A stretch of DNA of 64,000 bases, from positions 403,682,001 through 403,746,000 of the forward strand of contig OZ024740.1 of assembly GCA_964016885.1 (NCBI GenBank). The letters run 5' to 3'. A program made the translations under genes and the position numbers. Positions 7,124-59,510 of the stretch are shown here, piece after piece; position 1 is the stretch's first letter; every line of letters starts with the position of its first letter. The notes beneath the pieces are model-generated. The model was not told where the DNA came from, did not search any database, and saw only the letters and a program-made list of their open reading frames with translations. The stretch comes from Eledone cirrhosa (Eukaryota).

Positions 7124-10100
7124 GATATGTTTCTTTTATTTGCCACCAGGGCATCAAAAGTGGGACAAGTACAATGGGGGGAGTTTACAAAACAAGGCGT
7201 CCTCAATAAGGAGGAGGCAATAACAATATATAAAAATAAAATATAACAAAAAATAAGATTTATAACAAAGTCCTCAATAGATAGGAGGCGCCTTGGGGGG
7301 TCGCACGCACCCCCCAAAAAAAGTGTGCAACCCCTTTCCTCGGGAGGACAGAGAAGGGGTGCTCCCTTGGTCTTTCATCTTCCTCACCTATAGTCTGATG
7401 TAGAGTGAAGGCCCATTCACACGGGCCATTCTCGCCACTTTCACCCATCTTTCATAAAAACGGCTGGGGTGCAGCACCTCTCTCTCCATCCTGATCCTTC
7501 TTCCGAAATGATATCGGAAGAAACGGACCAGTTGTTGGCCAGAGAGAAAGGTATCAATGCCCGAGCAGTGTACCAATGCGTGTGCAACGGTTTCCTCGTC
7601 GCACACGCATCTGGGACAGATCTTTTTCGAGGGGTCCCTACCCGGGCGCCCGTGTCTGTAGAGCTTTTCTCGAACGGGCAGAGCCCTTCTGTAGCATTGC
7701 CAGGTCAGGGACCTCTGGAAGTTATCCATGGGTCCCGGGATGAATGTCTTACCGAACAGGTTGGCCAGTTCGTCTTCCTCCATGCCTAGGGCTTCTCTGA
7801 GGGCGTCGTCGCACCTGCTAACCACCAGCCCTCTATAGAATGACGAGGTGGATTCTCCACTGACAGCCGGGTCCGCCTGCCAGAGAGCCGTGAGCGCCTG
7901 GGCACATTCGGTGTGCCAGGCGCCCAGTTTTCTCGGTCTTTGCTTGACCCAGGATTGCAGCTCGGTGAGTGAGAGGAGTCTGGGAAAGGCTCGCCTCACA
8001 AACGGGGCCCACACCGGTTGACCGGAGAGGAATACCTGAAGGTGCCGTAGCCTTAATGCGTGTTTACGTATCATTAGCCACGGCATCCCCAGCCCTCCTT
8101 TCGAAGGGTGTTGACAGCAGATGGATCTCCTACCATAGGAGCCCGCTTCTTCCAAAGGAATTGGAAGAGTGCGCGCTCCATTTTGGCGAGCGTTTCCCTT
8201 GGGCAAGGCACAACGGTCAGGCGGTAGTAGATGACGGACGCTATATAAGTGTTCGCCACCTCCGCCCGACCTTTCCGGGACAGTTTGCACTCGGCCCACT
8301 TCTGGGTCAGTGCAAACACCCTGTTCGTTACCTCACCCCAGTTCTTCTCCACCTGGAGGTCTGGTCCGAACCAGACCCCGAGCAACTTCACCGGGCCCTC
8401 CGTCCAGCGCCCGACGACGCCATCGGAGGGCATCGATCTGCCCCTCCATGTGCCGAGTTAGAGACCGATCGACTTGTCCCGGTTCAGCTTAGCCCCTGTA
8501 AACCTTCGTACTCCTCCAGTAATTTGCCGATCGCCCCGATTTCCGAGGCCGTCGACACCATTACTGTTACATCATCGGCGTAGGCTGACACCGCTTTCCG
8601 CAATCCCGGTTCCAACGGGATGCCCTGCAACAACTCCAACTTCCGCAGCAGTGGATCTAGAGTCACTACATACAGAAGGGAGGAGAGAGGGCACCACTGT
8701 CGGATGGACCGCGCGATTTCGAACGGCTCCGAGAGGTAGCCGTTCACCTTGACCCTAGAGCAGATACGGCTGCTGTGCATGGCATTGATCCAGCCCCTGG
8801 AAACGGGTCCGAAGCCTGCCGCCGCTAGCACCGCATCCAGGTAACCATGGTCGACCCTATCGAATGCCTTAGATTGATCCAAGTTGATCAGGGCCACACC
8901 AAAGCCGGGTTCGTTCCCAACCCTCTCTATGATGTATCGCATGAGGTGGAGGTTGTCGTGGATGGACCTGGACGGGATAGCACATGTCTGCGCATCTCCC
9001 ACCAGGTTGCCCACGACAAGCGCCAACCTCTTTGCTAGCACCTTGGCCAAAATCTGTAACTCTGTATTTAGCAGAGTTATGGGCCTGAAATTATTTATAT
9101 CGTACCCCTTGTTCTCGTCCTTCCTCACTAGCGTGACTACGCCCTTGGCTACAGCACAGGGAATTCTCCCGTTCTGTTGCCAGTTGTAGTAGACCGCCTC
9201 GAGGAGATCGGGGAACAAGTCCGGCATAGCTAGATATAGTTCGTATGGAAGACCATCGAGACCCGGGGATTTGCGTTTGCCGCATTGGCTCAGCACGTCC
9301 TCTATCTCAGCGGCTGAAATCGGCCCCTCGCAGGACTTCGCCTTCCTGTCCGAGAGACGCGGCAGGCCGTCGAGGTATGGACCGAAGTCTACATCCCCAA
9401 CCGGCTCCCCGCCCCTTCCGAACAATCGGGCAAAGTGCTTTTGAAAAGCCTCGCACATCTGCTTAGGTTCAAGGATCACCCGTCCATCCTGGTCTCGCAA
9501 AGACCGGATAGTGGATCTGCTCCCTCTTTTGGCTTCTGTCACGCGGGCCCAGCTAACAGCTTTGGTCCCCTCGTTTCCCAGAGCACGTATTTTGCTTCGG
9601 ACGATGCAGCCTTCGTGTTTCGCGTCGAAGAACTGGCCCAGGGCCGTTCTCAACGCTACCACTCTGGCCACGTCACCGTTCCTAATTGCCTCTTCTACAC
9701 TATCTACCAACTCCCTTTCATTCCTATTTCTATTTGAGGCTAACTCCTTACTAAATTCTATAGAGACTACTCTAATCTCTCTTTTGAGAGATCCCACCAC
9801 CTGCTGTTGACGATGGCGCCCGTCAACCGCTCTTTAACTAAAGTGTTAATCCGGTCCCTGTAAGCCTTACTTGCCGGTAAGGACAAGTTGAGCTTCCAGT
9901 AACCGGGTCCTTGTCTATGAGTTCTGTCAAGGTTGACCATGCAGGTCACTAATTTGTGGTCTGAATAGCCAACCATGCGCATTTTTGGACAACTTAAAAA
10001 GTCATTATACTTAATTCTAACTAAGAACCTATCTAGGTACGACCTAGATGATCCGCTACGATTTGCCCAAGTCCAGGTTGGCGCAGTCGGAAAATCTAGT

Positions 10101-11165
10101 CGATATCTATCGGCCAGGTCAAATCGACCGATTAACCCTTTGAGGCTATTATACCCCTCTCTATCGGGACAGGCCCCTACGTAGTCCCAGCGTGCATCTA
10201 GGATACCATTCTAGTCCCCACTAATAGCAAGGAGCGGGACGTCCCTAGAAAAGTCTCCAGACGATGGAAGAAGTCCGGCCGCATTGACCCGAAAGGGCCG
10301 TAGGCGGCTACCAACCTAAACGCTCCGCCTTTACCACTGCCAAGGTCCAGAACCACTAGTTGACCCTCCGGGTCCAAATGTACTGTCTGTGTTGCGAGAC
10401 CCAGATGTTTTTGCAGAAGAACGACAACCCCACCCCCACCTCCGGGCTGACAGAGAGATGCGTGCATCTCAAAGTCATCAAAGGTGGGGGCCAGCTGTCG
10501 CACGTTGCTGATCCGGGCCTCGCAAATAACCATCACATCTATGCGTTGTGACCTGAGGTCATTTAGAAGCATTGCTTGCTTCCAAGTTGAGCCCAGGCCA
10601 CGCGCATTTAAACAGCCTACTCTTAGCATAGCCATTTTTGTGGTGAAGAGAAAAGGCACTTACCTCTCTGCATCCCGGGTATCGGGCTGCACAATTTCCA
10701 TTAGGGTGGGGGATGGGTTGTTGGGTGGGGTGGTGGTTTGTGGAAGTGTAGGGGTATCAGTGTGTTGTGTGGTTGGGGAGTTTGGAATTGTGTGGGTATT
10801 TGGGGAGGGGGTGGGTAGTTTTTTAGGAGGACGCGGTTAATGGGCCCGACGCAGGGGGGACCCACGTCCTCTTTAAAGTTGTTTTTTAAAGTTTTATAGG
10901 TGTCCTGTGGGGCCTTAATCATTTTGAGGTGGGGGAAATCCCCTGCCTGGGTGAAGTTAGGCCCTTGGGTTTTTATTAGATTGTTGTTGTACACAATGTT
11001 TAACAGTTTTTTGTTTCTTGTGTTTATGTATGTGTATGCATGTTTTTGTTTTTGTGTGGTGTTTTTTGTTTGCTGTTGTTGTGAACTCTTTTGTGTTGGT
11101 GTCAGTGTTATGTTTTGGGGAGGGTTGTTTTCATTTGTGTGTCTGAGGTGTGTTTTCTTTTTTCT
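7124..11165 (-). mobile_element. Tx1/L1-clade LINE copy 1: ORF1 3' part, ORF2 (APE endonuclease, RT, Zn knuckle) and 3' UTR; frameshifted
   Basis: MLRVGCLNARGL APE start (ATG 10635), SDH, GPGYWKLN, RPITLLN, LDQSKAFDRVDH, YADD, CPRC...HALVHC; ~200-bp deletion near 7553; 3' AATAAA then (TA)n. Confidence 0.92.
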
Positions 11166-11167
11166 AT

Positions 11168-14100
11168 ATAGATATGTTTCTTTTATTTGCCACCAGGGCA
11201 TCAAAAGTGGGACAAGTACAAAGGGGGGAGTTTACACAAAAAGGCGTCCTCAATAAGGAGGAGGCAATAACAAAATATTAAAATAAAATAAAATATAACA
11301 AAAAATAAAATTTATAACAAAATCCTCAATAGAGAGGAGGCGCCTTGGGGGATCGCACACACCCCCGAAAAAAGTGTGCAACCCTTTTCCTCAGGAGCAC
11401 AGAGAGGGGGTGCTCCCTCGTTCCTTCCTCTTTTCCACCTACAGGCTTATGTAAAGAGAAGGCCCATTCACACGGGTCATTCTCGCCACTTTCACCCACC
11501 TTTCATAAAAACGACTGGGGTGGAGCACCTCTCTCTCCATCCTGATCCTTCTTCCGAAATGATATCGGAAGAAACGGACCAGTTGTTGGCCAGCGAGAAA
11601 GGTGCCTGACCTCAGTCCTTTCAGACGCGTCCACCATACAACCTCTTTCGCCATGGCTATTACGCACAGAAACACCGCCTCTGCTTCATCTTTGAAGGGG
11701 GGAGGCGGCTTGATCATTACAATAGACTCGGTGGTCAACCGGATCGGTCCCACCCTTGACGGCAGTTGTTCGACATAGCCCCACAGATCGGCTACGCCCG
11801 AGCAGTGTACCAATGCGTGTGCAACGGTTTCCTCGTCGCACACGCATCTGGGACAGATCTTTTTGGCGGGGTCCCTACCCGGGCGCCCGTGTCTGTAGAG
11901 CCTTTCTCGAACGGGTAAAGCCCCTCGGTAGCACTGCCAGGCCAGGGACTTCTGGAAGTTGTCCATAGGTCCCGGGCTGAATGTCCTACCGAACAGGCTG
12001 GCCAGTTCGTCTTCCTCCATGTCTAGGGCTTCTCCGAGGGTGTCGTCGCACCTGCTGCGTACCAGCCCTCTATAGAATGTTGCGGTGGAGTCTCCACTGA
12101 TAACCGGATCCGCCTGCCAGAGGGCGGTGAGCGCCCGGGCACACTCAGTGTGCCAGGCGCCCAGTTTTCTCGGTCTTTGCTTGACCCAGGATTGCAGCTC
12201 GGTGAGTGAGACGAGTCTGGGAAAGGTTCGTCTCACAAACGAGGCCCACACCGGTTGACCGGTGAGGAATACGTAGAGGTGCCGTAGCCTTAATGCGTGT
12301 TTACGCATCATTAGCCACGGCATCCCCAGCCCTCCTTTCGAAGGGTGTTGACAGCAGATGGATCTCCTCACCATAGGAGCCCGCCTCTTCCAAAGGAATT
12401 GGAAGAGTGCGCGCTCCATCTTGGTGAGGGTTTCCCTTCGGCAGGGCACTACGGTCAGGCGGTAGTAGATGACGGACGCTATGTAGGTGTTCGCCACCTC
12501 CGCCCGACCTTTCAGGGATAGTTTGCAACTGGCCCACTTCTGGGTCAGTGCAAACACCCTGTTCGTAACCTCCGCCCAGTTTTTCTCCACCGGGAGGCCC
12601 GGTCCGAACCAGACCCCGAGCAACTTCACCGGGCCCTCCGTCCAGCGTCCGACGACGCCATTGGAGGGCATCGGTCTGCCCCTCCACGTGCCGAGTTGCA
12701 AACCGATCGACTTGTCCCGGTTCAGCTTAGCCCCTGTGAACCTTTCGTACTCCTCCAGTAAGGTGCCAACCGCCTCGATTTCCGAGGCCGTCGACACCAT
12801 TACTGTCACATCATCGGCGTAGGCCGACACCGCTTTCCGCAATCCCGGTTCCAAAGGGATGCCCTGCAACAACTCCAACTTCCGCAGTAGTGGCTCGAGA
12901 GTCAACACATACAGAAGGGAGGAGAGAGGGCACCCTTGTCGGATGGACCGCGCGATTTTGAACGGCTCCGAGAAGTAGCCGTTCACCTTGACCCTAGAGC
13001 AGATGCGGCTGCTGTGCATAGCAGTGATCCAGCCCCTGAAAACGGGTCCGAAGCCTGCCGCCGCTAGCACCGCATCCAGGTAACCATGGTCGACCCTATC
13101 GAACGCCTTAGATTGATCCAAGTTGATCAGAGCCCCACCAAAGCCGGGTTCGTTCCCAACCCTCTCTATGATGTATCGCATGAGGTGGAGGTTGTAATGG
13201 ATGGACCTAGACGGGATAGCGCATGTCTGCGCATCTCCCACCAGGTTGCCCACGACAAGCGCCAACCTCTTTGCTAGCACCTTGGCCAAAATCTGTAACT
13301 CTGTATTTAGCAGAGTTATGGGCCTGAAGTTACTTATTTCGTCCCCCTTGTTCTCGTCCTTCCTCCCTAGCGTGACTACGCCCTTGGTCACAGTACAGGG
13401 AATTCTCCCGTTCTGTTGCCAGTTGCAGTAGACCGCCTCGAGGAGATCGGGGAACAAGTCCGGCATAACTAGATATAATTCGTAAGGAAAACCATCGAGA
13501 CCCGGGGATTTGCGTTTGCCGCATTGGCTCAGCACGTCCTCTATCTCAGCGGCCGAAATCGGCCCCTCGCAGGACTTCGCCTCCCTGTCCGAGAGGCGCG
13601 GCAGGCCGTCGAGGTATGGACCGAAGTCCACGTTCCCAACCGGCTCCCCGCCCCTCCCGAACAGTCGGGCAAAGTGCCTTTGAAAGGCCTCACACATCTG
13701 CTTAGGCTCAAGAATCGCCCGTCCATCCAGGTCTCGCAAAGACCGGATGGTGGATTTAGTTCCACTGTTGGCCTCTGTCACGCGGGCCCAGCTAACAGCT
13801 TTGGTCCCCTCGTTCCCTAGAGCACGTATTTTACTTCGGACAACGCAGCCTTCGTGCTTCGCGTCGAAAAACTGGCTCAAAGCCGTTCTCGACGCTAGCA
13901 CTCTGGCCACGTCGCCGCTTCTAATTGCCTCTTCTACTCTATCTATTAGCTCCCTTTTTTTCCTATTCCTATCCGCAGCTAGAACCTTACTAAATTCTAT
14001 CGAGACTACTCTAATCTCTCTCTTTAGAGATACCCACCACCTGCTGTTGACGATCGCTCCAGTCAACCGTTCCTTAACTAACGTACTAATCCGATCCCTG

Positions 14101-14800
14101 TAGGCTCTACTTGCCGGCAAGGACAAGTTGAGCTTCCAGTAACCGGGGCCCTGTCTATGCGTTCTATTAAGGTTGACCATGCAGGTCACCAACTTGTGGT
14201 CTGAATAGCCAACCATGAGCATTTCTGGACAACTTAAAAAGTCCCTGTCCTTATTTCTAACTAAAAATCTATCTAGGTACGACCTAGATGATCCGCTGAG
14301 ATTTGACCAAGACCAGGTTGGCACCGTCGGAAAATCTAGTCGAAATCTATCGGCCAGGTCAAATCGGCCGAGTAACCCCTTGAGGCTGTTGCACCCCTCT
14401 CTATCGGGACATGCCCTGCATAGTCCCCACGTGCATCCAGGATACCATTCCAATCCCCCACTAAAAGCAGGGAACGGGACGTCCCTAGAAAAGACTCCAG
14501 ACGCTGGAAAAAGTCGGGCCGCTCTGTCCTAAAAGGGGCATATGCGGCTATCAGCCTAAAGGCTCTACCTTCACCACTGCCAAGGTCCAGCACCACCAGT
14601 CGACCCCCTGGGTCCAAGTGAGCTATCTGTGTTGCAAGGCCCATATGTTTTTGCAGCAGAACGACAATCCCACCCCACCTCCGGGCTGACAGAGAGATGC
14701 GTGCATCTCAAAGTCGTCAAAGGTGGGGGCTAACTGTCGCATGCTGCTGATCCGGGCCTCGCAGATAACCATCACATTTATAGATTGTGACCTGAGGTCA
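11168..14800 (-). mobile_element. Tx1/L1-clade LINE copy 2, 5'-truncated within the endonuclease, head-to-tail with copy 1
   Basis: Close paralogue of copy 1; its 3' UTR end at 11168-11250 is nearly identical to 7120-7200. Confidence 0.92.
11439..14453 (-). CDS. LINE ORF2 remnant: C-terminal APE half, reverse transcriptase and Zn knuckle (1004 aa open)
   Basis: YLDRFL...SDH, KSPGLDG, QGCPLS, YADD, GGLG, CPRCVCDEETVAHALVHC; N-terminus frameshifted. Confidence 0.88.
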   Translation of the reverse strand: MEWYPGCTWGLCRACPDREGCNSLKGLLGRFDLADRFRLDFPTVPTWSWSNLSGSSRSYLDRFLVRNKDRDFLSCPEMLMVGYSDHKLVTCMVNLNRTHRQGPGYWKLNLSLPASRAYRDRISTLVKERLTGAIVNSRWWVSLKREIRVVSIEFSKVLAADRNRKKRELIDRVEEAIRSGDVARVLASRTALSQFFDAKHEGCVVRSKIRALGNEGTKAVSWARVTEANSGTKSTIRSLRDLDGRAILEPKQMCEAFQRHFARLFGRGGEPVGNVDFGPYLDGLPRLSDREAKSCEGPISAAEIEDVLSQCGKRKSPGLDGFPYELYLVMPDLFPDLLEAVYCNWQQNGRIPCTVTKGVVTLGRKDENKGDEISNFRPITLLNTELQILAKVLAKRLALVVGNLVGDAQTCAIPSRSIHYNLHLMRYIIERVGNEPGFGGALINLDQSKAFDRVDHGYLDAVLAAAGFGPVFRGWITAMHSSRICSRVKVNGYFSEPFKIARSIRQGCPLSSLLYVLTLEPLLRKLELLQGIPLEPGLRKAVSAYADDVTVMVSTASEIEAVGTLLEEYERFTGAKLNRDKSIGLQLGTWRGRPMPSNGVVGRWTEGPVKLLGVWFGPGLPVEKNWAEVTNRVFALTQKWASCKLSLKGRAEVANTYIASVIYYRLTVVPCRRETLTKMERALFQFLWKRRAPMVRRSICCQHPSKGGLGMPWLMMRKHALRLRHLYVFLTGQPVWASFVRRTFPRLVSLTELQSWVKQRPRKLGAWHTECARALTALWQADPVISGDSTATFYRGLVRSRCDDTLGEALDMEEDELASLFGRTFSPGPMDNFQKSLAWQCYRGALPVRERLYRHGRPGRDPAKKICPRCVCDEETVAHALVHCSGVADLWGYVEQLPSRVGPIRLTTESIVMIKPPPPFKDEAEAVFLCVIAMAKEVVWWTRLKGLRSGTFLAGQQLVRFFRYHFGRRIRMEREVLHPSRFYERWVKVARMTRVNGPSLYISL

Positions 14801-21777: not shown

Positions 21778-24700
21778 TGCTTTCTTTATTGACCACAAGT
21801 GTTTACACAATGTAAGACATTAAGGACAATACAGGACAATACAGGATGGAACAAATGGGCATTTCTGCGTGTAAAAAAAAAAAACAGAGGATGTAACAAA
21901 AAAGAAACAATGAAAAATTCCCCAATAGGGGGGAGACTTCCGAGGGACATTCGTGGAGAAAGCCCATTAAAAAGCCACGGTGACCCTGACCACCAGGGCA
22001 AGTGCCATCTCACAGTTTTCCACCTTCAATTTACAGACACATACTCAGAGTAGGCCCATTCACTCGGGTCATGCTTGCCTCTCTCACCCATCTTTCAACA
22101 AAATGCTGGGAAGAGAGCACTTCCCTCTCTACCCTGAATTTCAAATGAAATTTGAAAAAGTTAATCAGAGCATCACCGAAGAGGTAAGTGCTCGTCTTCA
22201 GCCCTTTCAAACGCGACCACCACACTATCTCTTTCGCCATAGCCACCTGACAGATAAAAACTGCCTGCCCTTCCTGGCTAAAGAAAGAGGGCAAGGAAAT
22301 ACTCACGATAGACTCAGCTGATAACCGGATCCGTCCTACACGCGACAGCAGGTTCGACATAAACCCACAAGTCAGCAATGCTCGGACACTGGCCGAGTGC
22401 GTGCAGGACGGTTTCGTCGCCCTGCGCGCATCTCGGACATGCCCGGCTGACGGCATCTCCATGCCTGTAGACTTTATCCCGAACTGGCAAAGCTCCTCGG
22501 TAGCACTGCCAGGCCAGGGATTTCTGGAAGTTGTCCATAGACCCCGGCCTGAAAGTTCTTCCGAAGAGATAGGCTAGTTGATTTTCGTCGACGCCTAGAG
22601 TTTCCCCAAGTACGTCGTCGATCTTCCCCTACACTAATCCTCTATAGAACGCCAAGGTGAAGTTTCCAACGATCACATTGCCCGACTGGTCGAAGGCTAT
22701 GATAGCCTGAAGACATTCCAGTCTCCAAGCGCTCCTTCTCGGTCTTCGCTTGACCCAGGACTGCAGCTCCGTCAAGGAGACAAGCTGGGGAAAGACGCGT
22801 CTAGCAAACGGCGACCACACCTGATCACCGTCGACGAAGAGGTGGAGATGTCGTAGCCTACTGCGTGTCTGCGCATCATCAGCCACGGCATGCCCAGCCC
22901 TCCACGTAGCGGGTGTTGACAGCAGATGGACCGTCTGACCATTGGAGTGCGTCCCTTCCACAAAAAGCGAAAGAGCAAACGCTCCAGCGCAGTCAGGCGA
23001 GGCTTAGGACAAGGCACGACAGTCAGGTGGTAGTAGATGACGGACGCGATGTACGTATTCGCCACCTCCGCACGACCTTTCAGGGATATCTTCCTCTCTG
23101 CCAATTTCTGGGTGAGAGAAGCCACCCTGCTCGTCACCTCGTCCCAGTTTTTGTCCGTCCGGAGGTCCGGACCGAACCAGACCCCTAGCAATTTAACCGG
23201 TCCGTCCGTCCAGCGCCCGACGACGCTGTTGGACGGCAATAACCTGTCTCTCCAGGTGCTGAGCTGCAGGCCCACCGACCTTTCCTGGTTGATCATTGCT
23301 CCTGTCACCGCTTCGTATTCTCTTAGTGTAGTGCCGATCGCCTCGATGTGTTTGGCGTTCGACACCACTACGGTGGCATCGTCCGCATATACTGACACAG
23401 ATCTTCCGCATCCTAGTTCGCGTCCCCCCCCCCTCAACGTCTCCAGTTTGTGCAGTAATAGCTCGAGAGTCAATACGTACAACAGGAACGAGAGGGAGTC
23501 ATCCTTGGCGGACGGTGCGCATGATGTTGAACGGTTCCGAAAGGTGACCGTTCACTCTCACCACAGAGCAGATGTCGCTGTGCATGGCAGCGATCCAGCC
23601 TCTGAAGACTAGACCAAAGCCAGCCGCCCTCATGACTGCCGCCAGATAATGATGGTCGACCCTATCGAAAGCTTTGGACTGATCTAAATTGATCAAGGAC
23701 CCACCCGTGCCAGGTTCCCTAGCTACTCTCTCCACGATGTATCGTATGAGGTGGAGGTTGTCGTGGATGGATCTGTCTGGAATGGCGCATGTCTGCGCCT
23801 CTCCCACCAGACCACCAACGACAAGCACTAACCTCTTTGCTAGCACCTTGCCAAAATCTTAAACTCTGTGTTTAGCAGCGTTATGGGCCTGAAATTATCT
23901 GTTATGCCCCTTGTTCGGATCCTTTCTCAGCACCCCCACCGCTCCTCGGTTCACAGAGCTAGGAATTCTCCCGTTCTGTTGCCAGTTGCAGTAGACGTCC
24001 GCCAAAGGCCTCCGAACAAGTCTGGAATCAGTATATAAAGTTCATAGGGCAGACCATCCAAACCAGGCGATACACCCCTTGTGCAGCCAGTCATTGCCTC
24101 TCGTACTTCAGCGGCTGTTATCGGCTTTTCGCAACAGCTGAGCGAAGTGTCGCTGAAAAGCTTCACACATTTGCCCTGGATCGAATAGCATTCACCCGTC
24201 GAGGTCCACCAAAGACCGGATTGTGGCTTTGTTGCCACGACACGCCTCCGCCACTCGGGCCCATTGAACAGCTTTCGTCCCCTCGTGTCTGAGAGCACGC
24301 ACCCTAGCTCTGACAACGCAGCCTTCGTGCTTTGCATTGAAGAATTGGTCAAGGGCCAATTTCGCCGCAAGTACGTCGGTCGCGATGCCTTTACTAAGTG
24401 CCTCGTCTAATTTTCTAACTAGTTCTCCCTCTGCTCTATTTTTCTCTATTGCTAAAGCATTACTAAACCTAATTGACTCTATTCTAATCGCTCTTTTTAG
24501 AGCAAACAACCATTTGTTGTTGTCGATGGAGCCCGTCAACACCCGCTTAACTAATTCGCTAATCCGGTCACTGTAGACCTTGCGCGCTGTTAATGACGCG
24601 TTTAGCTTCCAGTAGCCAGGTCCCTGTCTATGAAACCTATCTAAGTCAAGCACACAGATCACGAATTTGTTGTCCGTGTAGTCGACTATTTTGAAATGTG

Positions 24701-27631
24701 GACAGCCTATGCTAGACCTATCTATTTCCCTACAAAATACCCTATCTAGATATGATCTGGATGACCCGACGCGGTTTGTCCATGTCCACATTGGCACATT
24801 CGGGAAATCCAGACGGTACCTGTCAGACAGTTGAAACCATTTGAGCAGGTTTGCGAGGCTTTTACACCCTCCTCCCCTATCCGCTAATCCCACACTGTCC
24901 CAGCGTTCATCTAAGATTTCGTTCAAGTCGCCTACTAACACTAAAGAGCGGGACGTTCCAAGAAAAGTCTCCAGATGCCGAAAGAAATCAGGCCGCCTTG
25001 CTCCTGTCGGGGCATAGTCGGCCACTAGCCTGAAAGCTTGCCCGTCTCCGCTGGTCACGTCCAGCACCACCAACTTACCTTCTGGGTCCAGGAAGATGGC
25101 CCGTATGGCGAGATCCAAACGTCTCCGAAAAAGCACAGCAACTCCTCCCCCCGATCCAGGACAGTTGGAAGATGCGTACACATCGTAGCCGCCGAAAACC
25201 TGTGCGAAGGCTCGTGTTTCGGAGATTCTAGTCTCGCTGAGATTCTGAGGTCGTTGAGCAGGTGGCTCTGCTTCCAAGACGATCCCAGGCCCACGCATTT
25301 ATGCTGCCTATTCTGAGAGAGGTCATGTTGAAAAGGAGTGGAAAAGATGGGAAAGACCACTTACCTTACTTCTCGTAGAGGAAGGATGGTTTCTTCATCC
25401 TTCTCACTGCTTGTGGTCTCCTCCGGAAGGATGTCCTTATAAATCCTCCTGGAGAGTGTTTGTCGGAAGTCTCTGATGTCTTTGGGGAATTTTTGTTTTA
25501 GTGTCGTGTACGTTTTCTGTGTGATGCGAGTGATTTGTATGTGTGGAGGTGGTGTGAATTTTTGGGGTGTTGTGTAGTGTGTTTCTGTGATGCTGGTGTT
25601 GTGTTGGATGTAGTGTAATAATTGGTTGTTGTTCAAATTTAATTGTTTCTACTTTAGGCAGAAGGCCAGCAATTACCCAGTGCATTACTGGTACTTTAGT
25701 TGTTGTTCAAATTTAATGCTGTGTAGTGTGTATCGTTTTGGTTGTTTTGTTTTGTTTGAGTTTGTTGTGCGTTTGTTTCTGTTTCGCTTTTTGGTGATTT
25801 TTGTGGTATTGGTGGTGTTGGGGTTAATGATGGTGATGGTGTTGGTGTTTGTGGTGATGGGGCTGGTGATGCTGGTGTGGGTGGTGGCATAGCTGTCTTA
25901 ACTTTTTTGTTTGTTTGCTTATTTGATTCCCCCTGCATTTTGTTTTTGGAGGGAGAAGGAAGAGAATTTTTTCTTTTTTGGGTTCTTTTTTTTTTCTTTT
26001 TTACTGATATCGTTTCCCACTCCTCCTCATCGTCACAATATGTCTCCAGTTGGGATAGGTCGGGAGTGGAAAATCCTCCACATGCGTTGGTTTTAGTTGT
26101 GGCGTGGTGGATTGTGGAAGCGCTGGTGCTAATTCTGGCGCAGTGGGTGGTGGTGGTGTTGGTTTTGCTACTGTTGCTGCTACAGTTGCTTCTGTTGTTG
26201 CTGCTATAGTTGTTGCTGCCATTTCTGCTGCTGGTGGTTTTGATGGTTGAGTCACTGGGGTGGGTAGGTGAGATGGCCTCAACTTTTTAGCCTGAGGGCA
26301 GAAAGCCTTTAGGTGGGTTCCTTCGCCACAAACGACACACCTAGGCCTTCTACTCCCAACGATTACGGTGAGGTGGTTGCCGTCATTGAGGTCTATCACC
26401 TCTGGAATTTCCGCAATGTTTTTTTGGTCCGCTTGGATCAGGAGCTCCATCCCAGATCCGGACCAGTTCTCCTGCTTTTCGTTTGTTACCTCAATTATTT
26501 TCGTGTTGTCCTCGATTCCGGCGAAGACAGCCATTAGCCAGGGAATTTCGATGGCCGGAGGATCGTGGGTCACCCTGACCTTCACGAGTCTCTGGCCACA
26601 ACAGCTTGGGACGAGTGTGAACTTATCACTTCTTAATTGGGCCATAGAGTGCTCTCTGGCTTCCTGTCGGGTTCCAAAGAACACGTTCACGGTTCCATAT
26701 TTCTGCCCACGTCTGATGTGGGATTTTTTCGCCCACACATGTCCCAAAGCTTTTTGTATCTAGGACTCGAATGTCCGTTCCACTCGGCGTGATTTTGTGT
26801 TTATCGTCCGATATGACAGGGTGCATAGGCGCCGATGCTCCATTTTATTAGCTGTGTGTGTGTGTGTGTGGGGGGGGGGGGCTTACCTTGTAGCCGTCTT
26901 TTTTTTACCATTCCCTTGGATTCATTTAATTCATCCTGGCTTACTTCGATTGTTTACGCTTTTCTTGGCTGCTTTGGCAAACGACACATTTTGTTTTACG
27001 CTGGTGTTGATGTTGTTGTTGTTATTCTCATTGTTGTTGTTGCTGTTGTTGTTATTGTTATTTTTGTTATTGTTATTTTTAGTTTCAGTTGTGGTGGTGG
27101 TGGTGGTGGTGGTGATGATGGTGTCAGTGGTGCTCGGTGTGGAAGAGTCGATTCTGGGTGAATCCATTTCGATGTCACGAAATAATAATTTTTTTTTTGT
27201 TTCCGTTGTCGCTGTGGTGGTGGTGGTGGAGGTGGCGGCTTTAACACCTGCAGTTATTGGTAATGGCGGGAAATGAATGTATGCATGTGAAAAATTTAAA
27301 TTATTGCCACTGCTTATATTTTTAGTGTTGGCAACCGTAGTAATGTTTACAATGGTGGTGTTGGTGTGAGGTGTTAGTTTGTGAGGAAGGCTGTCAGCTT
27401 TGTATGGCTGAGAGGCGTCCATGTTTTTTTTCAAAGAACGTTTTTGTTTGATAATTATGAAAGTTTAAATTTTGGGCTCAAGGCCCCAATATTATTTACT
27501 GTCCTTTTCAGAAAGTAATATATGTGAACTTATAGACACTTAACAACAAAAATTTTCTACCAATTTGAAACAACTGAAAACAACAAACCTTTGCGGAGAT
27601 CACGATAATACGATTTCCTACGTAGGTCGCC
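21778..27631 (-). mobile_element. Tx1/L1-clade LINE copy 3, near full length and decayed (ORF1 with CCHC knuckle, ORF2 APE-RT)
   Basis: ORF1 CVVCGEGTHLKAFC; ORF2 ISETRI, LVGDLN, GPGYWKLN, DQSKAFDRVDH, YADD, CPRC...HALGQC; (TAA)n at both ends; SINE fragment at about 25640-25700. Confidence 0.9.
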
Positions 27632-51736: not shown

Positions 51737-52579
51737 CGTCATAATGACGTAATGCAGATATTATAAGGGCGCAACGTAATATTTTTGTATCTATCTAAAA
51801 AGAGAAAGACTAAGAGAGAGAGAAAGACATCGTTAAATCGCCTAACGCGGTCCCTAGGGCATTGAAAATTTGGAATTTTTTTGCTCAAAACACTCAATAG
51901 GACCATAAGTATTACATGTGTAAACTTTGAAATCAATCGGTTGGGTAGTTCTCGAGTTTTAGTGATTTTACAGACAGACAGACAGACAAACAGACATTCT
52001 CTGTTTTAGATGACGTATATTCTTGCGGCTAATATGTTACGTGACATATTCCAGTTCGTTTATATTAGGATTGTGCTCTTGTTATCATGCCTCTCCCTTT
52101 TTGCAACAATTACTCATTGCTATTCCCCTACGACATGTTAGTATATGTACTTTGTACAAAATTAGTCATAAATACTACAGCTATAATAGAAAATACTTAC
52201 TCTATATACCAAACAGTTGGATTCATCTTGAAACCAAACAGTTGCTAAACGAAACTATTACTCTTACAGTCAGTGGCGGACTGTCCAGGTTGCCAGGTTG
52301 CCCAATGTCACGTGGGCCCCAGGTGGTCCATGGTAGCATTGCAAGAACCCACAGTAGCATTGCTTCATGAACTTGTTGAGTGCTCTAAATCTGCTATAAG
52401 CATTTATACCCTTTTCTAAATATATATTTTTTTATTTATTATTTGTCGTATTCCCAACTTTTAATTTTCACTTTTATTTTTATTTTTATATATACAATAT
52501 TTTTTTAATATATATACAATATTTATTTTTTATATATATATATATAATAATAATGTTCTTTCTCATATATATATATATA

Positions 52580-54480
52580 TATTGAGTCCTGAGTTTGAGA
52601 AATTTTTGCGTTAGACGTATTTTCTCGTAGTCTCGGCGATGGTGGTATGACCTGTCTATATCGACGGAGATGACTCTGGACAGAGGTTCTGGGGTTTCAG
52701 CGAGTTGTGGTACAAGGCTGGAAATAGTCCGTATGTGTTGTTGTAGCGTGCAGTGTAGGTGTTGTATGAGTTTTCTTAGGCAGAATTTTTGTATGTAACT
52801 AAGTGATCGTTTGAGGCCTGGTGATTTGAAGCATGTTGGTAGGTGCAAATTTTTGATAGTTTTTGGGATGATGTTATTCAGGCATCGTTTTAGGAAGTTT
52901 ATTTGGCAGCCGACTTTGGCGCGCTTTTCAGATAGCTGGAAGAGTTTCTTTACAGTTGTAAACTGGGCCTGGCTCAGGCGTAAGGAAAGGAGGAGGTTAT
53001 AGTTCACTTGAAGCATTGTGTAATGAGGTATAAACGTTTGTATATGTATAATAAAGCCAAAACGTGAGAAGGCAGATAAAATATACACTACATTCTCCAG
53101 CATGGACGCCAGTATAAAGTGAAGCATGGAACACCCCGATGACCGCGGATCCCTATTCCTACTGGACTTCCAACTCAGGGTAACAGAGGAAGGCAACATC
53201 CACACCTGCTTTTATAAAAAAAAGCCGCCAGCAGGGACCTGTTCGTACATTTCAGATCGGCCTCCCCACTCGGTGCCAAGTTCGGATACATAAGGAATGA
53301 ACTGGCACGTATCCGGAACAAATGCACCGACGCTAGAGACCGAGACACACACACCACACATTTCCTGGAAGTACTCAAACTGAACGGATACACGACATCC
53401 ACCACAAACCGTGCCAGAAAGAACAGAGGACACCACACCCGAGGCACTAACACTTGCTTCCTGAAGCTCCCACACTTCAATGAAGAAACAACAACAACCA
53501 TCCGCAGAGCTATCAGACGAGAGGGACTAGATATCCAAATGGCCCACTCAGGTCCTTCTCTACGCGGACAGCTAACCAAAAGACACTCCACCAGACATGA
53601 CAACTGCTGCAGACTAGCCAACTACCCCATCAACGACACAGACCTATGCCACCAGGCTTACGTCGTATACAGACTAGAGTGTGACAAATGCAACAACTTC
53701 TACGTAGGTAGCACCATCAGACCACTCCACATAAGAATAAAAGAACACCTCAATACTAACGCTTCCTCATTTAAGAAACACCTAGTTAAATGCAAAAACA
53801 CCGACAAAACCATAACAGTTAGGATAGAAACCAAAGAAAGAAACCTCGGCAATCTTAGAATTAATGAAGCACTAATTATAGACAAAACACTACCACCAAT
53901 CAATAATAGACTAGAACTCAACACCCAATTTATAACTTGATAGAGCTTCTAGCCCCATATTTACACACACACCCCACACACACACGCACACACGCACGCA
54001 CGCACACACACACACACACGCTTACACCTCCACTTATTCTCTCTCACACATACACACACAAAACCAGTTCTAACACGAAATAACACCTATCCCCCACATT
54101 TACGAATAGACATATCTTCTCACACTCACACACACACACTCACATACTTACACCGTCATGCATTCTCCCACACACTTAAACAGGCATGTATATAACCCCC
54201 CCCCTTTAAAGGGAGACTACTCTTTATCCACCTAATCTTAACTCTTTGACATTAGAGATAGAACAGATACTCTATACCATTTCCTGGCAAGCAATTTAGA
54301 ACACTGGTTGACAACTTTACTTCGCTCTGAAGAAGAGATATTATCTCTAAAATTAAGGACATTTAAATAAATCTAAGGTAAAAGACTAATTGTCAACAAT
54401 ATCTTTTGCATTTGCATTCTTTATTCTATGTCCATACCTGCATTGTTTTGGCTTTATTATACATATACAAACGTTTATAT
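52580..54480. mobile_element. Penelope-like element family E: inverted pLTR/ORF start (minus) joined to RT thumb and GIY-YIG (plus)
   Basis: Minus 52580-53015 QINFLKRCLNNIIPKTI; plus 53100-53940 LDFQL, FYKK, HFRSASP, VVYRLECDKCNNFYVGSTIRPLHIRIKEH, EALII...IN; 53028-53065 is inverted at 54443-54478. Confidence 0.85.
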
Positions 54481-55354
54481 ATATAGGAACGATCGACTTT
54501 CGTCAAATCGGACCGAAGAAACATTGTTTCCGTTGGTCTTTCCAATTGCTAATACTATCTATCGGTCGCTACTCCAGGTAGAAGGAGCAACATGAAATAA
54601 AGTGTCTTGCTCAAGGACATAACGCATCGCCTGGTCTATTTCGTACGTATGTATGTATACGTGCTTTTTTGTGTGTATTACTTACCACGCGTGTCTGTCC
54701 TGTTAGCTGGGTCATGTATCGCTGTCAAAAATTTTTTAAATAAAATATATAGATATATAATATATATATATATATATATATTTTTTTTTTTTCTTATATT
54801 TATTTGCGTGTGTGAATATGTAGAGGAGTGCATTCATGTATGTGTATGTATGTACGTTTTGTACGTTTGTGTGAATGTATGTATGTGTATATATATGTGT
54901 GTGTGTATGGCTATGTTTGTGTATGTGTATGCTTGTACACACACATGTGTATGTGTGTGTATGTGTATGTGTGTATATGTATATATATGTATATATATAT
55001 ATATATATGTACATATATATATATGTGTGTGGATATGTGCGTGTGTGTGTGTGTGTGTGTGTGCGCGTGTGTGTATATGTATTAATGTATGTATGTGTAT
55101 ATGTGTGTATATATGTGTTTGTGTAGGTAAGTGTACGTTTTATATATATGTGTATATGTATATATGTATGCGTACACACACATATATATATGTATATATA
55201 TATGTGTGTAAGTATGCTTTGGGTTTTTTTTGTGTGTGTGTTTGCATGCGTAGTTTTATTTTACTTTTCCTTTCCTTCTCCCTTCTCCAGCCTCACTTTC
55301 ATATAGATTGCATTTTTGGTTTTGTAATCCAAATTCAATAAACAAACCAGCTTT

Positions 55355-55413
55355 TTCCGTTCTGATGATTGAAAGCAAAACCTTTTGCTTTAAGAAACCA
55401 CTGGTAAATGGAA
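55355..55413 (+). ncRNA. Canonical type I hammerhead ribozyme
   Basis: TTCCGTT-CTGATGA-TTGAAAGCAAAA CC TTTTGCTTTAA-GAAA-CC ACT GG-TA-AATGGAA. Confidence 0.87.
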
Positions 55414-55452
55414 TAATTGCCTTGTGTTGTTTATTACATAATAATAATAATA

Positions 55453-55483
<31 letters not shown>

Positions 55484-55620
55484 TTTTAGAGTTAAATAAG
55501 GTTCATATGAATTATCTAAGAATGAGTTTTACACACATATATATGTGTGTGTTTGTATTTGTATGTACGTGTTTGTGATATGTATGTATATGTATGTGTA
55601 TATTTGTATGGTTATGTATG

Positions 55621-55681
<61 letters not shown>

Positions 55682-56143
55682 ATATATGTATATGTGTGTG
55701 TGTGTGTGTATGTATTTGTGTATGGGTATGTGTATGTATTTATGTATTTGTATATGTATATTTATGTATGAGAGTGTGTGTATGTATTTATTTTTACGTA
55801 TGTATGTGTACGTGCATTTGTGTGTATTGCTTACCACGTGTGTCTGTTAATTTATTTGTTGCCTGTATCGCTGTCAACATTATAATAGTCTTTATATTCA
55901 TTTTTATGTTTTTTATTATTATATATTTTTTCTTATATTTATTTGTGTGTGTGAGTATGTAGAGGTGTGTGTATATATTTCTATGTTTGTGCATGCGTAT
56001 GTATGCGTGTATATATGTGTGTATGTATGTGTATGTATGTACGTGTGTATATACGTATGATTGTGTGTATGTATGTATGTATGTATGTATGTATGTATGT
56101 ATGTATGTGTATGTATATGTATATGTGTATGTATATGTATGTG

Positions 56144-56197
<54 letters not shown>

Positions 56198-56510
56198 GTT
56201 GTATTTATGTATGTGTATGTATGGATATGTTGATATTTATGTGTGTATGTATGTATGTGTATATGTATGTGTATGTATATATATACACATATATATGTGT
56301 GTGTGCGTGTGTATATATGTGTGTGTATGTATGTGTGTGTATATATATATATATACATATATATGTGTATGTATATAATTGTGTGTGTGTGTGTATTTGC
56401 ATGTGTGTTTTTATTTTATTTTTCCTTTCCTTCTTCCTTTTCCAGCCTCAATTTCATATAGATTGCATTTTTGTTTTTAAAATCCAACGTCAATAAATAC
56501 ACCAGGATTT

Positions 56511-56570
56511 TTTCATTCTGATGATTGAAAGCAACATTTTTTGCTTTTAAGAAACCACTGGTAAATGAAA
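56511..56570 (+). ncRNA. Canonical type I hammerhead ribozyme
   Basis: TTTCATT-CTGATGA-TTGAAAGCAA...TTGCTTTTAA-GAAA-CC ACT GG-TA-AATGAAA. Confidence 0.87.
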
Positions 56571-56621
56571 TAATTGCCTTATGTTGTTTATTACATAACT
56601 ATATATATATATATATATATA

Positions 56622-57649
56622 TTAAAATAACAGATTAAACTTTAAGCAAAGAATCGCTGCTTTCACCCTTAACGGGATCTTCTGAAACTAACAAAGTCAA
56701 TCTGTAAACGCAGAAGTGGATATTTCAAAAAACGTTGCAACCGGAGGAAGACAGGAAGACGATACTTTGGTTCGTGGAAACGTTCCCTTCACAAAACATA
56801 CAGGTAATATATACTTACCTATGCAAATAAGTAATGGTATAAACATAACATATACTTAGCTACCACATCAAGACGTAAAATATCCACGTATAGATCGTAC
56901 TATCCGTTAGGGTATAATGTGGGGCTGTAATACAGGAAAGTGTTGTGCAATTTATGTTTACAAGCCGAAATTGCCTCAAATTTTTTGTTTAAGATGTGGT
57001 TTGTGGCGTAGAGTATTTCCAGGGCCTCAGCGCAGAGGTCACATGGTCTAGTATTTCCGTTATACGATCTAGCCCTAGCTAGGATCTCCCAATAGATTCA
57101 AGCAGCGTCTTTACATGCATACCCATTCTTTTCGTTACCCTCTAAGAAGGAATATGACGTCACTTTCAGCTTATATCCGGAGTCTAAAAGACAACCACGC
57201 CCAATATAAGTTACACTGGGAGATCCTAGCGAGGGCTAGATCGTATAACGGAAATAAAAGACCTTGTGACCTCTGCGCCGCTGATGCCCTGGAAATACTC
57301 TATGCCACAGACCACATCTTAAAAAAAAATCTGAGGCAATTTCGGCTTGTAAACATAAATTGCACAAAACTTTCCTGTATTACAGCCCCACATTATACCC
57401 TAACAGATAGTACGATCTATACGGGGATATTTTACGTCTTGATGTGGTAGCTAAGTATATGTTATGTTTATACCATTCCTTATTTGCATAGGTAAGTATA
57501 TATTACCTGTATGTTTTGTGAAGGAACGTTTCCTAGAACCAAAGTATCGTCTTCCTGTCTTTCTCCGGTTGCAACGTTTTTTGAAATATCCACTTCTGCG
57601 TTTACAGATTGACTTTGTTAGTTTCAGAAGATCCCGTTAAGGGTGAAAG
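56622..57649. mobile_element. Penelope family B 3' end as a ~1-kb fold-back (GIY-YIG C-terminal remnants, pLTR hammerheads in both arms)
   Basis: 56659-57092 is inverted at 57215-57649; WEILARARSYNG..RPCDLC remnant; CAGAAGA hammerheads at 56640-56689 (-) and 57620-57649 (+, cut by the gap). Confidence 0.8.
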
Positions 57650-57849
57650 NNNNNNNNNNNNNNNNNNNNNNNNNNNNNNNNNNNNNNNNNNNNNNNNNNN
57701 NNNNNNNNNNNNNNNNNNNNNNNNNNNNNNNNNNNNNNNNNNNNNNNNNNNNNNNNNNNNNNNNNNNNNNNNNNNNNNNNNNNNNNNNNNNNNNNNNNNN
57801 NNNNNNNNNNNNNNNNNNNNNNNNNNNNNNNNNNNNNNNNNNNNNNNNN
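57650..57849. other. Assembly gap
   Basis: Run of N. Confidence 1.
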
Positions 57850-59510
57850 ATGGACCGTATGGCGAGATCCAAGCCTCTCCGAAAAAGCACAGCAACTCTT
57901 CCCCCGCTTCCGGGCGGCTGGGAGATGCGTATACATAGTAGCCGCCGAAGATCGGTGCGAAGGCTCGTGCTTCGGAAATTCTGGTCTCGCTGATGGCCAC
58001 CACATCTATGTTTAGTGACCTGAGGTCGTTAAGCAGACGGCCCTGCTTCCAAGATGACCCCAGGCCACGCACATTTACACTGCCTATTCTAAGTAATACC
58101 ATGTTGGGTGAGGAACGGGGTAAGTGAGAAGGATCACTTACCTTGATCGTGTGGGAGAGGGACAGTTGAAACGTCCCTTTGCCTTGTCATCGGTGTCTCC
58201 AAGATAATATCCGTGCATATTCTCTTTATATGTTCCATGAGTTATTTATTTGCAATGTTTATGGCTGTGTAATTTTTGGGGGGAGGGGGGAGGGGCTGTT
58301 TTCTTGTTGCTGCTGTTGGGTGTATGTGCCTTGACGTGTTTGCGATGTTGGTATTTGTGGTGATGCTGGTGGTGGTATGGTTGTTGGTAGTGATGCTTGT
58401 GGTGGTGATGGTGTTGCTGCAAGTCACCTTGTTGGATTCGTGGGGTCTGGGAGGGATATGAGCTCCACGGCTGTTGGTGGTGGTAATGGAGCCCGCTCCG
58501 GTAATTTTGCCGCCGGTGTAGCTACTGCGACTGTTGGTGTTGCCGCCACTGCTGTCGCTGTTTTAGTTGTTCGTGGCCTTCGTATGGGTGCCACGGACGC
58601 TGCCCTCCTACTCACCGCAGAAAGGTCTGACGCCTCTGTTGCCTGTCCTGCTTCTGATAGCAGCGGACCAGGCGTCGGAAGGAAGGGCAGGGGCTTCTCC
58701 TTTGCTGTCTTCTGCGGACAAAAGCCCCTGAGGTGACCCTTCAACCCACAGAGATAGCACTTTCTTCCTTCCACGCTTATGGGGAGTTGAACTCCCTCTT
58801 CGAGGTCTATGACGTCCGGGATAGCCTCGATACACTCCTGGTCAATTTGGATTAGCATTTGCATTCCATTACCTGACCAATTCTCCCTCCCTATCCTCTG
58901 CACTTGCAGCGTGGTCGTTCTATCCTCGACTCCCGCGAGGACAGATGTGGCCAGACAATGTATAAGCACGTCGGGCGGGACCTGGATCACCTTGACCCTC
59001 ACAATCTTTTGCCCACAGTAGGAGGACACTAACACTATCTCCTCACTCTTTAGGGTTACCGAAGGGTGAGACTTCTCCTGTTTAGGTGTGGCAAAAAGTA
59101 CCTACCCGGTGCCATACGTTTTGCCTCGGGTGATGTGGGTTTTGCGTGCCTACACGCACCTCAAGGCCTTTTGAATTTGAGCCTCCGTGGCTCTCTCCAC
59201 CCGATGTGATTTTTTGCTTATCGTGCAGTATATAACCGTACGTAACTGTTGATCTTTGAAAAACTCTGATGGAGATTTCAGGGAGACTCTATTTTCTTTC
59301 CTAGTCACAATGGCCCTTGCGACCTCCATCTCCTCCTCCGTGACTACCACTGTCTCTATCTTCTGGGCCAGACCCACAAAAGAAATGGTTATTTTTTCAG
59401 TGGCTCCATTATAGCTGCCGCTACTGCTGCTACTGGTCTTGTTGTTGATGCTAGAATCGTTGTTACTGTCATTGATGTTGTTATTGTTGTTATTGTTGTT
59501 GTTTTAGTCG
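57850..59510 (-). mobile_element. Tx1/L1-clade LINE copy 4: ORF1 (CCHC knuckle) and start of the ORF2 APE domain
   Basis: CYLCGLKGHLRGFC; MVLLRIGSVNVRGL...AISETRI. Confidence 0.85.

Follow-up and report, generated by a model that had tools for sequence, protein, structure and literature searches.

Two 5′-truncated 3′ ends of Penelope-like elements (PLEs), both from one Hydra-clade family and each carrying a terminal hammerhead ribozyme, very probably make up the repeated region described here. It lies in a window of 64,000 nt from the genome of Eledone cirrhosa (contig OZ024740.1, positions 403,682,001 to 403,746,000, forward strand); all positions below are those of the window. An end of one subfamily (A) likely inserted into a (TA)n tract within the 3′ UTR of a copy of another subfamily (B). 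A sequence-only reading had proposed a large retrozyme-like RNA, with stacked PLE 3′ ends as its alternative. It is the alternative that agrees with the subfamily identity of the two ends, with the linkage of both to a reverse transcriptase ORF and with their termination in (TA)n. As a locus this is an ordinary case of retrotransposon copies stacked in TA tracts; the family to which it belongs matters more.

Hammerheads and repeat units in the window

Two type I hammerheads were located on the plus strand from the window sequence and a motif scan. Their CTGATGA cores begin at 55362 and 56518, the spacing of 1156 nt that had been noted before, and the predicted GUA (GTA) cut sites end at 55406 and 56563, a cut-to-cut distance of 1157 nt. 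Each has the CUGANGA and GAAA core, stems I to III and an NUH site, which is GUA in both; the GAAA and stem III (ACC-ACT-GGT) are also common to the two, so the earlier statement of a shared core and stem III stands. Stem I is TTCCGTT/AATGGAA in hammerhead A and TTTCATT/AATGAAA in hammerhead B; one pair differs in both bases (C-G/U-A) and another in a single base (G-U/A-U), exactly as first read. The minimum-energy fold is a three-way junction in each case, with modest z values (-1.2 and -2.0), and no Rfam hammerhead model matched the window at gathering score. Genome-wide there are 9,188 exact matches to the core pattern, a count that takes inverted pairs twice and misses mutated copies, and 0 to its reversed control, so the motif is not a product of chance. 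Judged by sequence, both window hammerheads are confirmed as genuine motifs. Stem III comprises three pairs and a triloop, with a predicted energy of +0.4 kcal/mol as a hairpin and -8.2 kcal/mol as a near-palindromic self-duplex. Such a layout corresponds to a dimer-type design, and the hammerheads are predicted to act, probably, as dimers via the palindromic stem III. The both-strand motif scan also gave weaker hammerhead-like motifs at about 30975 (-), 33179 (+) and 45645 (+), two of which have near-identical sequence in opposite orientation.

Table 1. Features of the stacked region, in window coordinates.
Feature	Position	Strand	Remarks
Hammerhead A (type I)	55355..55413	+	Stem I 55355-55361 with 55407-55413; core 55362-55368
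Hammerhead A, continued		+	GAAA 55394-55397; predicted cut after 55406
Hammerhead B (type I)	56511..56570	+	Core 56518-56524; predicted cut after 56563
Unit 1: 5′-truncated 3′ end, subfamily A, Hydra-clade PLE	54636..55449	+	Terminal 182 nt; sharp start
Junction: (TA)n and T run	55450..55487	.	Likely the target tract of the A copy
Unit 2: terminal part of subfamily B 3′ UTR	55484..56596	+	3′ terminus as usual in the family, followed by (TA)n
Upstream piece of subfamily B 3′ UTR	52360..52590	+	Collinear with unit 2
Unrelated nested PLE fragment	52591..54485	+	Inverted 5′ part; GIY-YIG ORF 53218-53940
Short dispersed repeat	54458..54636	-	Back-to-back with 5′ end of unit 1; 89-96% to several loci
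Inverted pair of ends, other TA-associated repeat	56615..57649	.	Multi-copy; in TA tract after unit 2

The unit bodies consist of TG/TA microsatellite with short homologous unique blocks, by which a general repeat finder run on the window was swamped. As previously noted they hold no real ORF, the long open frames being low-complexity artefacts. The description of the region as tandem 1.15-kb units does not hold: unit 1 is only ~810 nt long (54636 to ~55449), with its 5′ end cut off, which leaves a single interval between ribozymes in place of two complete units. Nor are the units tandem duplicates, with 81-92% identity in their unique blocks (89% at the ends, 81% in one upstream block). The terminal 182 nt of unit 1 differ by 1.1% from A copies and by 7.8-11% on average from other copies, while the corresponding 182 nt of unit 2 differ by 1.1% from subfamily B copies. 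Unit 1 becomes homologous to A copies at a sharp boundary, position 54636, where it abuts a short repeat that is unrelated. In B copies without an interruption, the place of the junction is occupied by a (TA)n tract.

B copies carry the block that lies to the left, at 52360-52590, with 91-97% identity and immediately upstream of their head block. It is likely that this block and unit 2 are one B insertion, split by later nested insertions with the loss of ~130 nt. The nested PLE fragment is multi-copy, its ORF is assigned to GIY-YIG by Pfam (E=1e-5), and a degenerate hammerhead-like motif lies within it near 54326. The short repeat beside unit 1 presumably resembles a SINE. It and the A end stand back-to-back, on the minus and plus strands respectively, each running outward into (TA)n, and the arrangement looks like a two-template inverted insertion. 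The inverted pair of ends to the right, which includes an ORF remnant with CxxC at 57079-57450, is likely another Hydra-type PLE. Farther off, 44409-44565 matches the ORF end of the Hydra-clade family at 77%, as the remnant of another Hydra-like element. A multi-kb repeat has three copies in the window at 7650-14676 and 22459-25150, two of them at a 4.24-kb period. At 57650-59101, a 200-nt N gap is followed by minus-strand frames that presumably resemble the start of a LINE endonuclease and a protein with a CCHC knuckle.

The source family and its stem I variants

The 3.0-Gb genome was searched with each end. The two top lists do not overlap and comprise matches of 96-100%, with the 40 best matches scored per end out of 602 and 1,729 candidates. 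Each end is ~99% identical to its own dispersed subfamily and 89% to the other. One copy (locus L021) displays the order ribozyme, 5′ UTR, frameshifted ORF, 3′ UTR, ribozyme and 5′ UTR at a 4.7-kb period, that is, pLTR-ORF-3′UTR-pLTR. Two B copies (L067 and L075) are linked to the same ORF at 89-96% and are without an internal hammerhead, and subfamily A copies are likewise ORF-linked. Overall, the element has a period of 4.3-4.7 kb and a microsatellite-filled 3′ UTR of 2-3 kb, and its hammerhead sits about 230 nt upstream of the ATG. Most copies are much shorter: in a sample of 79 cores, taken by position from 60 regions around the first listed matches, 39 retain the ribozyme only, 10 the adjacent flank as well, 7 and 9 are longer, and 14 extend to the ORF or its 3′ UTR. 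This 5′-truncation ladder was read in an upstream window of 4 kb, or about 1-1.5 kb for inverted pairs, and two or three of its assignments come from short matches. The finding named in advance as contrary to a retrozyme, that the other copies are 3′ UTRs of ORFs, largely holds, as copies long enough upstream reach the PLE ORF.

The protein of the family ORF contains the motifs RWK, DKT, YRDDG, CxCx5C, CxxC and CxH. A predicted model of a natural 528-aa frame (pLDDT 87, from a 93-sequence alignment) matches reverse transcriptases and telomerase with E down to 3.5e-7, and on this predicted structure the ORF qualifies as a reverse transcriptase. A PDB sequence search with the family ORF gave no useful match, and Pfam detected neither RT nor GIY-YIG in pieces of the ORF and seven homologues, so the endonuclease is a putative assignment by motif, namely YVGMT with CxxC/CxH spotted by eye.

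The Hydra clade is defined by RWK, DKT, CxCx5C and CxxC/CxH, with (TA)n targeting and canonical hammerheads (PMC8557442); its C-terminal GIY-YIG endonuclease lacks CCHH. In the present family we see the RWK, DKT and CxCx5C linker motifs, insertion into (TA)n, a canonical hammerhead, and pLTR and inverted 5′-truncated copies. The length of less than 3 kb, a typical trait rather than a strict criterion, is exceeded by the 4.3-4.7-kb period. Placed by its motifs, and with the reference proteins compared by eye, this is a putative new and very abundant family of the clade. It combines a large copy number with a long microsatellite 3′ UTR and, in some copies, a disabled internal ribozyme. Other TA-associated elements sit within the family's 3′ UTR at several loci, and long open frames of 612-736 aa from other Hydra-type families occur in the same genome (L023:7317-9392, L077:5019-7226, L024:4622-6457).

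In 215 parsable copies, a sample that is enriched for subfamilies A and B and in which copies are not independent, the first stem I pair is U-G in 120, U-A in 64, C-G in 29 and A-A in 2, and never C-A; the second is A-U in 179 and G-U in 31. The subfamilies keep stem I paired by passing through a wobble state, and for source elements this is compatible with the earlier proposal that the fold was under selection. The proposal does not extend to selection at the window locus: the common U-G state (120/215) links the differences between subfamilies, and the changes are two or three lineage events. In related subfamilies (L201, L213 and similar), stem III and the tail are shared but stem II is another one, longer and perfectly paired, and it lends itself better to covariation analysis than stem I does.

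Origin of the junction between the two ends

The ends of copies suggest how such a stack could form. Of the 183 copies that are not internal, 106 pass into (TA)n at 36-45 nt beyond the ribozyme site and 65 end at about 100-115 nt, with 3 that run on and 9 others. These two positions match the two-site tail of a PLE studied in vitro, for which two internal start sites are described and uncut RNA is the main template (PMC11167929). No 5′ truncation falls at the cleavage site: 0 of 91 tail-anchored copies (91 recovered of 100 listed) break within 4 nt of it, which is consistent with uncut RNA as the main template in that system. The element protein would nick (TA)n and prime reverse transcription inside the RNA, with the start point some 36-45 or 100-115 nt 3′ of the ribozyme site. 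Copying would then pass the uncut (or re-joined) ribozyme and usually halt early. The element's own 2-3-kb 3′ UTR is full of (TA)n and would therefore itself be a target, and PLEs insert into or beside earlier copies according to a review (PMC6765202).

The pattern of ribozyme tail followed by B head has 6 genome matches, with the A tail only in the window. A wider pattern of GUA plus head has 24 matches: 16 are inherited internal ribozymes linked to the ORF or 3′ UTR, 2 more have that same junction, 2 are truncated at the ribozyme, 3 are unrelated, and the last is the window, alone among the 24 in having the full upstream flank. As the A-on-B junction occurs in 1 of 24 matches, a self-insertion that happened once is its likely source, rather than a retrozyme. 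The fetched loci hold 51 same-strand ribozyme pairs within 5 kb. In 45 of them, including the window, the head block follows the first ribozyme directly; an ORF lies between the two ribozymes in 2 pairs, and the remaining 4 are one-off or deleted arrangements of other types. Other one-off same-strand stacks are present at L051, L071 and L164.

The initial proposal, that of a large non-autonomous retrozyme, supposes the release of a 1157-nt RNA that circularises and then returns to the genome by reverse copying, as head-to-tail repeats. There are features in its favour, including the GUA and intact core at both sites, released ends that would re-form stem I with the U-G pair common in the family, a minor lineage with two GUA ribozymes about 1.1-1.6 kb apart, and the proposal that animal retrozymes derive from pLTRs (10.64898/2026.07.22.740005). 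A predicted circular fold of the 1157-nt interval, computed without a shuffle control, shows TG/TA pairing and carries no weight here. Rolling-circle copies are, however, expected to be near identical, and here the two units belong to subfamilies 89% alike, at an interval of 1157 nt where a monomer of 150-450 bp and near-identical tandem units would be typical. A copied-back circle should moreover give upstream flank, ribozyme and head in succession, which is seen only in the window. No ORF-free head-to-tail array of at least two like units was found among the 51 same-strand pairs in the fetched loci, nor do we see propagation as an ORF-free unit. The reciprocal cut-and-rejoin (ORF-circle) junction at the internal site is absent in 6 of 6 candidates, all of which are terminal-type with a private change. 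The retrozyme is thus already largely refuted at the DNA level, as far as sequence can speak to it, and we consider it very improbable. Two hammerheads in direct orientation are insufficient to call one.

Within the stack, the order of insertion is not given by divergence, as units 1 and 2 are each 1.1% from their nearest copies. The B copy may have come second, truncated at an internal TA tract and entering the TA run that ended an older A copy; B copies starting at this tract do exist (L048, L050), and every copy ends in a TA target. This order is unlikely, given the collinear upstream B piece 2.9 kb to the left and the fact that A is the least diverse subfamily. We prefer A as the later arrival because of the split B fragment and because A is the least diverse group (0.019), with the B copy likely split by nested TA-tract insertions, A among them.

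An inherited internal hammerhead and related systems

The same capture of a tract, fixed once in a source element, could have produced a lineage with an inherited internal hammerhead. This minor lineage has, ahead of the head block and within the TA tract that corresponds to the junction in the window, a short duplicate of its own terminus that runs from about 65 nt before the cut site to the usual 3′ end. Exact-pattern genome counts give GUG at the internal site in 361 of 385 matches and GUA in 24, compared with GUG in 107 of 8,803 elsewhere (468 of 9,188 in total). CUGANGA is kept in 399 of the 468 GUG matches, and internal copies with GUG and an intact core are exemplified by L021:5561-5660, L087-L125 and L186-L215. 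Hammerheads are not known to cleave NUG sites. A count of tail plus head (431, against 385 with the exact core) revealed no large hidden lineage with a decayed internal core. A tree built from the ends of 52 ORFs gives a best order that runs from no internal copy to internal GUA, to GUG, and to GUG with a changed loop (subfamily A). Once 9 unclassified rows are left out, internal-bearing copies form one clade (100/98) and GUG copies are grouped at 94/90 (not starred), with an alternative grouping not rejected (p=0.06). The internal site would then have changed from GUA to GUG, likely because an internal cut would part the ORF from the priming end. The pattern hints that the ribozyme may cut in vivo and that internal cutting would be harmful, with one mutation event behind it; since the GUG excess amounts to about one such event, drift could also account for it.

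A more specific proposal is that the internal hammerhead is an uncleavable, catalytically intact partner, whose stem III pairing in cis would cut the terminal site; we regard this as improbable. The internal ribozymes of the GUA lineage and subfamily A differ at five positions, with flanks that differ by 9-25%. The five leave the 11 invariant positions of the core and the 14 of stem I untouched, the sole core change being at the tolerant N7. By hand calculation the chance of no change is ~0.36 for the 11 core positions and ~0.06 for all 25, neither of them significant, so the unchanged core and stem I are at most suggestive of a helper role. If there is such a partner, the window would repeat the capture event that founded the design. 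The design would then be a ribozyme heterodimer of natural origin that works one way, and it would speak for in vivo action of PLE ribozymes. Somewhat unlikely, though less so, is that the motif persists for its RNA structure or as a signal bound by protein and seldom cuts in vivo, GUG being neutral in a relic. The lack of truncations at the site among the 91 tail-anchored copies agrees with this, as does the report that in another PLE cleavage is dispensable for in vitro insertion, with no reads ending at the site in the data described there (PMC11167929). The internal copy has also drifted in stem II and loop III, with a predicted dimer energy that goes from -8.2 to -7.0 or -5.1 kcal/mol. 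Against such a signal, the site is A, C or U in every Hydra hammerhead tabulated by Craig 2021 (PMC8557442), and GUG is nearly confined to the internal position.

Copies of the family without an internal ribozyme, with internal GUA and with internal GUG make up a natural series. Matched constructs based on it could address whether, and why, PLE hammerheads cut in vivo, a question left standing in PMC8557442 and PMC11167929. Full-text literature searches gave no inherited uncleavable internal hammerhead in a PLE among titles and abstracts, with subscription papers and bioRxiv supplements outside their scope.

The nearest described element is Hydra-1_Obim (PMC8557442), which likewise has a single ORF with RWK, DKT, CxCx5C and CxxC/CxH, (TA)n targeting and a type I hammerhead near its 3′ end, and whose N-terminal protein sequence is clearly alike by eye. 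Its palindromic stem III reads ACCA-A-TGGT, compared with ACCA-C-TGGT here, and stems I and II and the protein are otherwise unlike in the published entry, which makes the present family a separate one. It differs further in its 4.3-4.7-kb period and 2-3-kb microsatellite 3′ UTR, where the entry gives less than 3 kb, in its clear pLTR copies, and in the second hammerhead inherited in some lineages. Short palindromic stems III are shared with the dimer-acting PLE hammerheads (PMC4209133), although stems I (7 bp) and II (8-10 bp) are longer here than in the minimal forms described there, and dimer action is predicted. As in the Poseidon element PAc (PMC11167929), there are two 3′ end positions past the ribozyme and insertions read through the site; PAc belongs to a different clade, and its ribozyme overlaps the ORF start, whereas ours is about 230 nt upstream of the ATG. 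Finally, animal non-LTR retrozymes (PMC7229834; 10.64898/2026.07.22.740005) also have direct type I hammerheads, a non-coding low-GC interval and a pLTR link. They are described as near-identical tandem repeats of 150-450 bp expressed as circles, whereas here two unlike subfamily ends stand 1157 nt apart and are not propagated as a unit.
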